Origin: Klebsiella phage phiKp_32
DNA: 64,000 bases
Sequence record: LC768500.1
Strand: one strand, 5' to 3'
Made by a program: the position numbers and the translations under genes. Each line of letters opens with the position of its first letter. Positions within the stretch are counted from its first letter, which is position 1. Under the pieces are notes generated by a model, which saw nothing but the letters and a program-made list of their open reading frames with translations, had not been told where the DNA came from and searched no databases. Below, one piece after another: positions 17,409-59,893 of this stretch.

Positions 17409-17684
17409 ATGAAATTTACTTCTGCTGTTGCAAAACTCAAACCTGGTTTCGGTATTCAGTGCACCGATTGGAATGGCGCAAATCAGTTTGTTTTCGATGC
17501 CTCTTTGACCATGTCTCTCGTTGAAGCACGCAAGCAGGGCTTCCCCGGCCCGGTTAAACTGAAACCGGTTTACGTGTTGCATAACGCCAAGGGTGAGCTG
17601 CAACCTGGTTGGGTGCCGTCTCAGGGTGATCTGCGCAACGAGAACTGGGTCGTTGTCAAAATCAAAGACGCGCTGGCGAAATGA
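17409..17684 (+). CDS. DUF2829-like small protein; codon usage of a highly expressed gene
   Basis: MKFTSAVAKLKPGFGIQCTDWNGANQFVF...GWVPSQGDLRNENWVVV matches the GWNG ... ASQxDxLAEDW pattern recalled for this family. Confidence 0.5.
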   Translation: MKFTSAVAKLKPGFGIQCTDWNGANQFVFDASLTMSLVEARKQGFPGPVKLKPVYVLHNAKGELQPGWVPSQGDLRNENWVVVKIKDALAK

Positions 17685-18058: not shown

Positions 18059-18982
18059 ATGCCTATCATTATCGTTCCAGTTAGCGGTGGGGTAGAATCT
18101 ACCGCTTTACTCCACAAAGCCTTACAAGGTGACAACGAAGTTCATCCCGTATACGTTGCTGTCAACGGCGACCCTAGATCATCGGTATTTGATTTAACCG
18201 CAGCCGAACATATAGTGAATTGGTTTGAAGAACATAAAGGCGGTTACGTTGGGAGATTAAGACCCTTAACGTATATGATCAATCCGGTTTTCTTTCATCT
18301 CCATAACAATAACGAAATAGAAAACACCCCGGCCAATTATGGAGTGACCCAACAATTTCAATTGGTTTACAACATTAGTCTTCTTCGATCTAAATTTTGG
18401 GATTGTAATCCAGGTGTCTGGATTGGTTGGTTAAAGGAGGATGGCAATGAGTTTTCTTTTAACGAATACGATTTCTCGGCAGAGGAGTATAAGGAACTAT
18501 TAAAATTACCCGTGACACTAGGGGCGTTATCTAATATAGATAGAACGTGTAAGCCTTTTAGAACCCCCTTCTGGGAAATGACTAAATCCGATGTTTATCT
18601 AAGCCTGCCTGAAGAGCTTAAAACTTTAGTCGTTCCTAACGGTTCCGAGTATTATAACGGAGACGGTGACTTGGTCAGAACACCTTGGAAAGCTAAAAGG
18701 AAAGAATGGATCAATGCGAACATACCTATTAAAGACAGTTATGTATTTTCAGCAGCTCAGATTTCCCGCATAGGGCGATACGCCGGAAAGAAACTCTTGG
18801 GGAAAGATTTCAATCTCTCTCCTAATTACGACGCTTTAATCGAATTAGTTTATCGAGACTCTCGATGGCACCCTCTCCCCTTTACCAATAAAGACTTCTA
18901 CACCATTTGTAGTGCGAATAACTTAAAAGCCATCGTCAGGGAAGCCCAACACAACATCCCTGCTATCAAACCAATCGGTTAG
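18059..18982 (+). CDS. PP-loop (adenine nucleotide alpha-hydrolase) family protein, QueC/PAPS-reductase-like
   Basis: N-terminal IIIVPVSGGVESTAL is the SGGxDS-type PP-loop with E instead of D; rest of protein unassigned. Confidence 0.45.
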   Translation: MPIIIVPVSGGVESTALLHKALQGDNEVHPVYVAVNGDPRSSVFDLTAAEHIVNWFEEHKGGYVGRLRPLTYMINPVFFHLHNNNEIENTPANYGVTQQFQLVYNISLLRSKFWDCNPGVWIGWLKEDGNEFSFNEYDFSAEEYKELLKLPVTLGALSNIDRTCKPFRTPFWEMTKSDVYLSLPEELKTLVVPNGSEYYNGDGDLVRTPWKAKRKEWINANIPIKDSYVFSAAQISRIGRYAGKKLLGKDFNLSPNYDALIELVYRDSRWHPLPFTNKDFYTICSANNLKAIVREAQHNIPAIKPIG

Positions 18983-19035
18983 TTGGATAGTTCATCTATT
19001 TTTAGTTCTACATTATCTGGTCGGAGGAACTAAAA

Positions 19036-20172
19036 ATGTTTATTAGTAAACGGGGTAAACTCCGGCCACATAAATCCAATATTGAAATTATCGAACGGAC
19101 TTTCGGTTGTCGGAGATTTGTCTGGAATCAGTTATTAGGATTACATAAAGAGCAATATGAAAAATGGAAGGGGGATAATACTTTAGAAAAACCCAAATTA
19201 AGTTTAACACTGCTTAATAAAGAGCTCAATGAGCTCAAAATAACTCATTCTTGGTTAAATGAAGTAAGTGCCGTAGTTTTACAACAAAGCGTCAATGATC
19301 TTTATAGTGCTTTTCAAGGTTTCTTTAAGAGAGGCAAAGGTTACCCTAAATTTAAATCCAAAAGAGGAATTCAATCTTTTCGGTTTTCAGGTAGTCGGGA
19401 TATTCATGTCGACCACTCTAAAATCAGATTACCCAAATGCAATCATAAATCGGTAATTTCTAAAAACGTTATACTCAACGATCCTTCTTCCTATACCGTT
19501 ATTCGTGATCGGGTTGGCGATTATTTTATTTCCTTTGTTGACCAAATCGAAGAGATTGAACAAGAACCTGAAAGTAAGGGTAAGTTCGTCGGGGTTGATT
19601 TAGGGATCAAATCCTTGGCGGTTATTAAACACGTAAACGGTAAAGTAGAGGAAATAGAAAATCCTCAATTTTATCGTAAAGCTGAAAAACGTTTAAAGAC
19701 GTTATCCCGTCGTTTAAGTAAGAAACAGAAAGGGAGTAAGAATCGGAACAAAGCCAGAATTAAATTAGCTAAACACTGTCGAAAGATTGCTAATCAACGC
19801 AATGACTTTTTACATAAATTATCCACTCGATTAATTACCGAAAACCAAGGGATTAATATCGAAGATTTAAATGTAAAGGGGATGGTTAAGAATCATAACT
19901 TAGCGAAGTCGATTCAAGATGCGTCTTTCAGTATCTTAAAACAACAATTGATTTACAAAGCTAGCCGGTATATTAAACCTAAAGTGATTTGTCTTGTCGA
20001 TCGTTTTTATCCCAGTACTCAAATCTGCTCTCATTGTGGCGTTAAAAGTGAAGTGAAAATCAAACTTCACGTAAGAGAATGGACCTGTGGTCACTGCGGA
20101 ACGCATCACGATCGTGACATTAATGCGGCTACGAATATCCTTAACGAAGGATGTCGTTTAACTACTTCCTAG
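19036..20172 (+). mobile_element. tnpB: TnpB (IS200/IS605-family OrfB, IS1341-type, no tnpA): RuvC-like nuclease with zinc finger
   Basis: RuvC-I VGVDLGIKSLAV; RuvC-II INIEDLNVKGM; Zn finger CSHCG...CGHCG; RuvC-III HDRDINAATNIL; 378 aa intact. Confidence 0.85.
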
Positions 20173-20299
20173 GTTAAGGGTATTTAGTTACCCCTACCCT
20201 TGGTCTGAGGGGACGTTAAGCCTGCGGAGTGCTGCAGTTGGTACGAGGAAGCAGGAAGTTGATTTATCAGCAAGACACATTATCTTTTCGGAGTAATCA
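20173..20299 (+). ncRNA. Candidate TnpB omega-RNA / IS right-end region
   Basis: 127-nt non-coding stretch immediately 3' of tnpB with small palindromes (aagggta...taccctt; cctgc...gcagg). This is the position where omega-RNA is normally encoded. Confidence 0.25.
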
Positions 20300-20488
20300 A
20301 TGAAATGCAATCACGATTTTGAAAAACCCACCTATGAATTCTTAAAGAAGGAGTCGGGCTTCTTTCATTGTTTTAAACGAACGTGTAAACAATGCGGGCA
20401 TGTTCACCAACAAGAAGTGAAACGTAAATCAGATGTGCCTCTCTGGGCTAAAGAAGCAGAAGAGGTATTTCACTATCACAAATTTTAG
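20300..20488 (+). CDS. Small zinc-ribbon protein
   Basis: CNHD...HCFKRTCKQCGH cysteine/histidine cluster; RBS ggagtaatcaatg. Confidence 0.45.
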   Translation: MKCNHDFEKPTYEFLKKESGFFHCFKRTCKQCGHVHQQEVKRKSDVPLWAKEAEEVFHYHKF

Positions 20489-20500
20489 GAGTCAATATCA

Positions 20501-20896
20501 ATGGGTATGATCGATTATGTTTACGTTGAGGGAGATAATAAGGTCGGAATCCCTAAACTAATCGGCGGTGAGCACTATCAAACCACGGAAATGGATTGTC
20601 TTTCGGTTAAATACAAAATTAATGAAAATGGTGTATTTTCTGTCGTGGGAAAGGGTAATTGGGAAGGGGATTACGAACAAGATGTTTTGGGTGGGTGTTT
20701 AACCGAAACAATTGCGCTCGTAGGAGAAACGGAAGAAGGTAATAAAGAGCTTTTTCTTTATATCGAGAATAACGTTGTTAAATTCGTTTTCGAATACGGT
20801 AACATTCGGTATAGAGCCGAAGATATTAACCTTGACAGCATGTATCGAAAATTCACCGATGAATTCTTGGGCGAATTCGAATTCTTATTAGAGTGA
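20501..20896 (+). CDS. Hypothetical protein
   Basis: 131-aa ORF with RBS ttaggagtcaatatcaatg. Confidence 0.5.
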   Translation: MGMIDYVYVEGDNKVGIPKLIGGEHYQTTEMDCLSVKYKINENGVFSVVGKGNWEGDYEQDVLGGCLTETIALVGETEEGNKELFLYIENNVVKFVFEYGNIRYRAEDINLDSMYRKFTDEFLGEFEFLLE

Positions 20897-46453: not shown

Positions 46454-46493
46454 TACTGGAGTGGGGGATCCCCCACTCCAGTAAGTTTTTTTT
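46454..46493 (+). terminator. Hairpin ttactggagtggggga tcccccactccagtaa + T8
   Basis: 15-bp perfect inverted repeat followed by tttttttt. Confidence 0.75.
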
Positions 46494-46559
46494 ATATTAT
46501 TTTAAAACTATATTACCTAAACGTATAGACAACTTCTTTTATTTAACTGGAGTAGTAAA

Positions 46560-59815: not shown

Positions 59816-59893
59816 CTTATATTTATTTTGAGATCTACATTATCATGGTGTAAGCATAGTACGTTTTTATTTTCCTTTTTAGGAGTTAACATC

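Follow-up and report, generated by a model that had tools for sequence, protein, structure and literature searches.

The window analyzed here, the whole of a 64,000-nt stretch of Klebsiella phage phiKp_32 (LC768500.1), carries a tnpB gene between two phage genes, and the question raised by this locus is whether the gene is a stranded passenger or an RNA-guided nuclease that acts on competing phages. We observe that the TnpB cassette occupies a 51-nt spacer separating two genes of this Miamivirus-like jumbo phage. The answer that we consider reasonably probable is that it is a tnpA-less cassette of the IS200/IS605 superfamily, made up of TnpB and its omega-RNA, whose guide would be the adjacent phage sequence and which would act on co-infecting relatives with an empty site.

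The DNA around the element is 91 to 96% identical to that of the ~253-kb jumbo phages Miami (Miamivirus), KPN8, and YC1, and in all three (3/3) the two flanking genes lie only ~51 nt apart, i.e., the site is empty, with the sequence ...TTCTACATTATCT|TTTCGGAGTAATCAATG... by alignment. Since the locus is empty in these relatives, tnpB is an insertion, as a first-pass annotation made from the sequence alone had supposed, and not a conserved phage gene. The 1,267-bp insert holds tnpB only, with neither tnpA nor a second open reading frame (ORF), which agrees with that annotation's remark that no tnpA is present; its description of flanks of 53 nt (18983-19035) and 127 nt (20173-20299), both with inverted repeats, was likewise accurate. 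The limits of the insert and the repeats around it are as follows.

19019-20285, + strand: insertion relative to the empty site, 1,267 bp (19010-20276 is equally valid, as the boundary slides by 9 nt)
19010-19029, + strand: left copy of an imperfect 20-nt direct repeat, ACATTATCTGGTCGGAGGAA, from alignment to the empty allele
20277-20296, + strand: right copy of the direct repeat and candidate guide, ACATTATCTTTTCGGAGTAA, equal to the uninterrupted allele in relatives
18998-19037, + strand: 11-nt perfect inverted repeat, arms 18998-19008 and 19027-19037, ATTTTTAGTTC and GAACTAAAAAT

The sliding boundary corresponds to a 9-nt repeat, ACATTATCT. The left and right copies of the direct repeat are identical at 17 of 20 positions with a spacing of 1267, which makes the target duplication at this element an imperfect one of 20 nt, and two such repeat matches arise in 0/100 shuffles. 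The initial 9 nt of the left copy equal the target, and the copy departs from the candidate guide at positions 10, 11, and 18. It also contains the tnpB ribosome-binding site (RBS; GGAGG at 19023-19027), and both are enclosed by the inverted repeat, of which arm ATTTTTAGTTC is phage backbone and arm GAACTAAAAAT is made of the 5' untranslated region of the element plus the AT of the tnpB ATG. The repeat may form a hairpin that masks translation on read-through transcripts. A comparable 9-nt pair, TATTTAATT/AATTAAATA, is seen upstream of a related metagenomic tnpB (P0004, in L136). No further copies or solo right ends were found in the window by blastn, tblastn, or the covariance model described below. 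We also considered the empty alleles as deletions between short repeats and rejected this as unparsimonious, as it needs an ancestral element at every site and identical loss in all other lineages.

With respect to the protein, the following features were located.

19036-20172, + strand: tnpB ORF, 378 amino acids (aa), from Pfam, NCBIfam, and PDB alignment
19597-19599, + strand: codon of RuvC residue D188, from alignment to ISDra2 TnpB
19861-19863, + strand: codon of RuvC residue E276, from the same alignment
20116-20118, + strand: codon of RuvC residue D361, from the same alignment
20026-20040, + strand: zinc-finger motif CSHCG (CSHC is aa 331-334)
20086-20100, + strand: zinc-finger motif CGHCG (CGHC is aa 351-354)

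The ORF matches the Pfam domains OrfB_IS605 (PF01385, 1.8e-29), Cas12f1-like_TNB zinc ribbon (PF07282, 7.5e-19), and HTH_OrfB_IS605 (PF12323, 3.1e-08). Its score for NCBIfam guided_TnpB (322 bits, cutoff of 100) places it in the RNA-guided TnpB subfamily; the best-scoring named model is NF038281 IS200_TnpB at 348.8 bits, which is nevertheless under the curated cutoff of 425, and IS607_TnpB gives 199.7 bits, under its cutoff of 350. The solved ISDra2 TnpB (8bf8/8exa) aligns with it end to end (E = 1.8e-60), with catalytic D191, E278, and D361 of ISDra2 corresponding to D188 (GVDLG), E276 (IEDLN), and D361 (HDRD) of the window protein, and both CxxC pairs are present. The D/E/D triad and the CxxC pairs that the first-pass annotation had picked out are thus intact on alignment. 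The ratio of nonsynonymous to synonymous substitution rates (dN/dS) of the gene against nine relatives is 0.09 to 0.22. Judged from these comparisons, the protein is shown to be a full-length TnpB that has intact catalytic residues and is under purifying selection. The gene is already annotated as TnpB in GenBank: a Klebsiella phage phiKp_32 protein on a 251,460-bp contig, named "IS200/IS605 family element RNA-guided endonuclease TnpB," is 100% identical to ours. A nuclease-dead TnpB regulator of the TldR type is ruled out by the intact RuvC triad.

A candidate omega-RNA region behind the gene had also been suggested at first pass, and comparison with related elements bears this out, revealing a conserved and covarying region with a RAGATH-18-like core, in which we distinguish the following parts.

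20130-20277, + strand: candidate omega-RNA scaffold, of which 20173-20277 is the conserved noncoding part; its uncertain 5' limit probably falls within the tnpB ORF's 3' end
20176-20182/20195-20201, + strand: helix AAGGGTA/TACCCTT, an inverted repeat
20221-20225/20251-20255, + strand: kink-turn C-stem, as specified in the covariance model
20229-20233/20240-20244, + strand: NC-stem, as specified in the covariance model

Eleven right ends were compared, from elements at 63 to 85% protein identity plus Pseudomonas phage EL at 51%. In all 11, the sequence after the stop codon is kept through ...GAAGCAGGAAGTTGAAATATACAAGAC(A), after which the flanks diverge completely; conservation breaks off sharply at the scaffold terminus ...CAAGAC (20276), ~105 nt past the tnpB stop, and the A at 20277 is kept in 10/11 sequences. 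The sole Rfam match in the region is RF03064, RAGATH-18, at 20221-20257 (29.8 bits, E = 0.0058, 2.5-kb search), which is sub-threshold (gathering score of 44.9), as the outer helix and kink-turn match but the inner stem lacks ~37 nt. Ren et al. showed by experiment in 2024 (PMC11061315) that the guide RNA of IS607 TnpBs has RAGATH-18 as its core, which lies intergenically after tnpB and is followed by a 3' flank and then the guide.

Consensus structures from RNAalifold on MAFFT alignments were poor or unstable and were replaced by three hand-specified helices, from which a covariance model of the eleven right ends was built and realigned with Infernal. This model gives 18 matches in 449 kb of related loci, all of them (18/18) directly 3' of a tnpB gene on the same strand. 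In the model's alignment, 95.3% of cells are paired and compensatory changes occur in 17/18 pairs, a pairing level reached in 0/500 shuffles and compared with 37 to 50% in slid controls. We take these comparisons to show that the ~105 nt after the tnpB stop are a conserved, covarying RNA with a predicted structure that includes a RAGATH-18-like kink-turn helix, a typical feature of the guide-RNA scaffolds of TnpBs.

The ISDra2-like elements have a homologous helix, and their scaffold ends in ...GAGGTTCAA and is followed by variable flank. This is in line with the published right-end element RNA (reRNA) of ~150 nt, which is encoded by the right end together with the gene's 3' end and takes its last ~16 nt from the flank (PMC8612924). 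From the limit of conservation and this architecture, we set the end of the scaffold at 20276/20277, with 20277-20296 as the likely guide. The first-pass annotation had correctly expected a flank-derived guide past the right end, although it put that end at 20299, and its overall reading is essentially right once end and guide are moved.

The candidate guide is identical to the uninterrupted allele of Miami, KPN8, and YC1 (3/3); an exact search of IMG/VR gave 0 matches. In the window, the only two matches at up to 3 mismatches are the guide itself and the left repeat, and the guide overlaps the RBS of the downstream gene (20300-20488). What precedes the right-end junction is scaffold (CAAGAC), in place of the GTTCT that lies upstream of the target. 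The left junction retains GTTCT, and there the guide matches at 17/20 positions (mismatches at 10, 11, and 18). Such an arrangement of the junctions is the one expected of self-sparing. For ISFba1 TnpB, sensitivity to single mismatches is reported (PMC11061315).

According to the reading that we favor, TnpB would process its own transcript into an omega-RNA, with the 3' 16 to 20 nt (within 20277-20296) as guide. When phiKp_32 and an insert-free relative infect the same cell, the ribonucleoprotein would cut the empty site, and the break would either be repaired from the phiKp_32 copy, which amounts to homing without a transposase, or the competitor would be damaged. The phiKp_32 genome would be spared at the right junction by lacking the upstream context and at the left one by its three mismatches. 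Since the guide equals the empty allele of three relatives, the cutting or converting of co-infecting relatives is the expected activity, and a homing or exclusion role would fit the sequence. TnpB has been described as a homing endonuclease acting on vacant sites (PMC10690162), and a 2026 review discusses "non-restorative homing" into co-infecting phages, which it treats as theoretical for phages (PMC13565253).

The window element is not alone. Sister elements with 63 to 85% protein identity are found as VB_ZK_P1, BUCTxx100, Miami gp287, P0014, and the metagenomic P0004, P0005, and P0008; the window element and these seven sisters occupy eight different sites in backbones that are 91 to 98% identical, and for 8/8 an empty allele exists in other phages. 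Pfam annotation of the neighbors at the seven sister loci returned no Y1_Tnp and no Resolvase. The right end is exact in every sister element, and the distance from left junction to ATG ranges from 6 nt to ~330 nt without a shared hairpin. P0008 reuses the RBS of the downstream gene for its tnpB. P0005 (L137 1291-3385, compared with L145, which is KPN8_116) is inserted within coding sequence; its left side brings a ~70%-identical replacement 3' end that completes the upstream gene, and the native 3' end (~140 nt) is left as an orphan copy right after the right end. The overlaps between left and right junctions measure 9, 7, 9, 7, 2, 8, and 6 to 8 nt and always start 0 to 2 nt after ...GAC. Miami gp287 has no overlap, and ~18 bp present at the YC1 site are missing there. 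In-locus repeats add L140 (7 nt) and L142 (9 nt), for neither of which an empty allele was found. By simple probability, overlaps of at least 7 nt are expected in well under 1/1,000 random joins.

The sister loci hold further observations. The second phiKp_32 tnpB (P0014, L134 2001-3137) is 63% identical and lies outside the window, ~400 nt upstream of an Acb1-family gene (L134 3526-3993) directed against the cyclic-oligonucleotide-based antiphage signaling system (CBASS); upstream of its ATG are ~150 nt without a counterpart in the empty allele (L136). In L151 (4915-6207; SKEH01000004.1, 252,837 bp), a frameshifted tnpB (124 plus 265 aa) has a complete right end; directly after it come the final 27 nt of another right end, of P0015 type, and then the flank known from L142. 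We read this order as one element having replaced an older one at that site or inserted into it. In L142 itself, an ...AAGACAC remnant lies 9 nt upstream of the left repeat. A scan of IMG/VR and a metagenome collection for the tail pattern of the right end gave 30 loci, of which L151 alone is a true right end and the other 29 are chance matches within coding DNA. At a distant phage TnpB locus (L010 3013-3663, 43% identity), Rfam identifies five tRNA genes, clustered ~400 nt downstream of tnpB.

Several results weigh against the proposed action on empty-site relatives. Across ten empty or duplicated sites, a search at every junction offset for a transposon-adjacent motif (TAM) found no shared 4- to 5-mer, the 5 nt upstream of the target being GTTCT, GAACT, AACCT, TCGAT, TTATG, TTATG, ACTAC, CCCTA, TATAC, and CAAAT; as no TAM can be derived, the empty allele is only a putative substrate for cleavage. 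No co-conversion tract surrounds the window insert, whose flanks are 95 to 100% identical to relatives up to the junction, and every insertion is seen in one genome lineage only, with no allele sweeping through relatives. The covariation was counted on an alignment fitted by the model itself, and the single-sequence fold of the RNA, folding being a check recommended at first pass, is not exceptional (z = -1.1). Much of this would suit a selfish passenger that inserted once, is immobile without tnpA, and plays no role in phage competition, the match of guide and target then being trivial: the insert has no tnpA, no TAM is recoverable, no co-conversion signature is seen, and only a single genome is known with this very insertion (P0001, a cluster of 1). 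However, purifying selection across ten diverged copies (dN/dS of 0.09 to 0.22), strong conservation of the RNA scaffold, and at least eight independent insertion sites in near-identical backbones argue for ongoing activity and not decay, and we consider such a passenger unlikely.

Somewhat further from the evidence is an ordinary non-autonomous IS200/IS605 element, moved by a host Y1 TnpA in trans and inserted 3' of a TTAT-like TAM, with a right end at ...GACACATTAT(CT) and a guide that begins at ~20284-20286 (CTTTTCGGAG...). TTAT-type TAMs are known for some ISDra2 relatives, and TTAT or ATTAT does occur at or near the left junction in the window, VB_ZK_P1, Miami gp287, P0004, and P0014. Yet elements with near-identical scaffolds differ in the 7 to 9 nt after ...AAGAC, which therefore derive from the flank rather than from the element; left ends of 6 to ~330 nt share no hairpin; and the right junction would carry TAM plus target and hence invite self-cleavage. 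As a control, the procedure was applied to five ISDra2-like tnpB-only copies in one genome, which showed a constant hairpin-bearing left end directly after TTGAT in 5/5 cases and no duplication. Compared with this control, the variable left end, the lack of a TAM, and the duplication indicate that the phage clade does not carry the signature of TnpA peel-and-paste, so that colonization of new sites does not look transposase mediated, and we judge transposition in trans improbable. Least probable of all, in our estimate, is a domesticated TnpB with a role other than its own propagation, such as regulating the downstream gene under RNA guidance or attacking the DNA of the host. The guide region does overlap the RBS and start region of the gene at 20300-20488, and the elements lie amid accessory or anti-defense genes (Tad2-like at 17409-17684; Acb1 beside the second phiKp_32 copy), but the catalytic triad is intact, unlike that of nuclease-dead TnpB-derived regulators, IMG/VR holds 0 exact guide matches, and tnpB, which the closest relatives lack, is found at a site that differs from phage to phage, a pattern that belongs to mobile elements and not to a fixed function of the phage.

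The ends also bear on classification. Autonomous IS200/IS605 elements have a Y1 HUH TnpA and a constant left end, both of which are lacking here, and a duplication is present; for IS607, there is no serine recombinase and the IS607_TnpB score is below cutoff. Insertion by an IS607 serine recombinase was rejected, with overlaps of 7 to 9 nt rather than 2 nt and no recombinase.

If the clade has neither transposon ends nor a transposase, it could, as a doubtful extension of the homing reading, spread by TnpB's own cut, copying from the donor, and joining on the left by microhomology. TnpB cleaves 15 to 21 nt from the TAM. The left break end would thus keep the TAM and the first target nucleotides, the tnpB-scaffold-target unit would be copied from the donor (from DNA, or even from an unprocessed tnpB/omega-RNA transcript), and the left side would be joined by microhomology. 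Such a route would explain the exact junction of right end and target, the variable left ends with donor flank (including the diverged host-gene 3' end copy of P0005), the partial duplications always starting at guide position 1, and the mismatches in the left copy that would protect the filled allele.

A further candidate for the homology at the junctions, CTAYATTAT as a common phage promoter, has just 2 exact occurrences in the 64 kb, no more than chance would give. Related TAYATYAT sites are present in the window at 46493 (46493-46500) and 59836 (59836-59860), and TACATTATCATGGTGTA at 59836 is very similar to the sequence ATATCATCATGGTGTA that YC1 (L009) has where gp287 is inserted in Miami. 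TAYATTAT motifs after T-rich DNA recur in intergenic regions, and most sister elements, like phage EL, have the motif ahead of tnpB. It may represent a phage promoter class that is carried or targeted by these elements.

With respect to the genomic setting, the insert is bounded by the following genes.

18059-18982, + strand: upstream neighbor, a PP-loop/QueC-like Rossmann-fold protein, outside the element and bounding the target spacer on the left
20300-20488, + strand: downstream neighbor, a 62-aa Cys/His-rich protein, outside the element, whose RBS and start region are the target/guide region

The upstream gene had been called a PP-loop ATPase gene at first pass; an SGGVES PP-loop-like motif is indeed present, but the family match is weak (PHROG QueC-like, 1.1e-07), with no match in Pfam or NCBIfam. 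Two genes upstream of the element, a 91-aa ORF (17409-17684, +) matches the Pfam family Tad2-like (Thoeris anti-defense 2; E = 8.8e-14), and the cassette therefore sits in an accessory/anti-defense neighborhood. Just downstream, a 131-aa gene (20501-20896, +) is present in Miami and absent in KPN8, and YC1 has an additional 345-nt (114-aa) ORF upstream of the PP-loop gene. Judged by such differences in gene content, the surroundings of the insertion are a mosaic, variable part of these phage genomes. A scan around the element for sigma-70 promoters and intrinsic terminators gave no signal above shuffled expectation.

The locus itself is ordinary; it is the clade-wide structure of the ends that is unusual. 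Its possible importance lies in the family pattern, i.e., at least eight intergenic or genic sites in otherwise 91 to 98% identical jumbo phages, with a precise RNA-defined right end and without a transposon left end, a transposase, or a recoverable TAM. Should mobility or homing of the cassettes prove independent of TnpA, phages would offer a natural case of an RNA-guided homing endonuclease gene, and "non-restorative homing" would then be directly testable with the available isolates phiKp_32, Miami, KPN8, and YC1. In addition, compact nucleases of ~378 aa with scaffolds of ~130 to 150 nt are potential genome-editing candidates.

Among known systems, ISDra2 TnpB of Deinococcus radiodurans (8bf8, 8exa, 8h1j) resembles the window TnpB in its D-E-D RuvC triad and zinc finger, in a homologous GCCTGTGGAG...GAAGCAGGAA-type scaffold helix, and in a guide RNA formed from the 3' gene end and right end with a guide from the flank (PMC8612924). 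The two differ in the 3' tail of the scaffold past the helix, ~20 nt in the phage element versus 29 nt in ISDra2, and ISDra2-type copies have a constant hairpin left end after the TAM TTGAT and no duplication; in the phage clade, the left end is not constant, no shared TAM is recovered, and duplication is present. At the ISDra2 residues that read the TAM in the cryo-electron microscopy structures (K76, F77, Y52, and S56), the aligned window residues are A, V, L, and K, and therefore the TAM probably differs from that of ISDra2. The IS607 TnpB ISFba1 (PMC11061315; 8iaz) shares a guide-RNA core just after tnpB, a kink-turn helix, and a protein size of ~380 to 390 aa, but the window protein is nearer to IS200/IS605 (PDB E of 1.8e-60 versus 2.2e-33; NCBIfam 348.8 versus 199.7 bits), the window element has no serine-recombinase TnpA, and the IS607 TAM AGGAG/GAGGG was not found at the phage-element junctions. 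The IS1341-type (tnpB-only) elements are similar in having a single tnpB ORF, no tnpA, and a length of ~1.3 kb. The first-pass suggestion of an IS1341-like hitchhiker is accordingly apt as to gene content and only approximate as a label, since canonical tnpB-only control copies keep transposon ends and a TAM, and the phage clade lacks a constant left end, yields no recoverable TAM, and duplicates its target.

TnpB genes are frequent in phages (PMC12607003). For plasmids, TnpA-independent spread of IS605 among copies has been described (PMC11870625, as cited in PMC13565253), in which the vacant allele is cut and converted, the same logic as we propose here; the difference is that this involves canonical insertion sequences in plasmids, and nothing comparable is known from phages. 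A further likeness is to T-even phages, with their free-standing homing endonuclease genes (SegA-G, Mob) and intronless homing; these are single nuclease genes between conserved phage genes that are present or absent among close relatives and co-oriented with their neighbors. Such nucleases are expected to cut the gene-lacking allele in co-infection (reviewed in PMC13565253), and the same would be expected of the phage cassette, with the difference that its recognition would use an RNA guide copied from adjacent DNA and not protein-DNA contacts.

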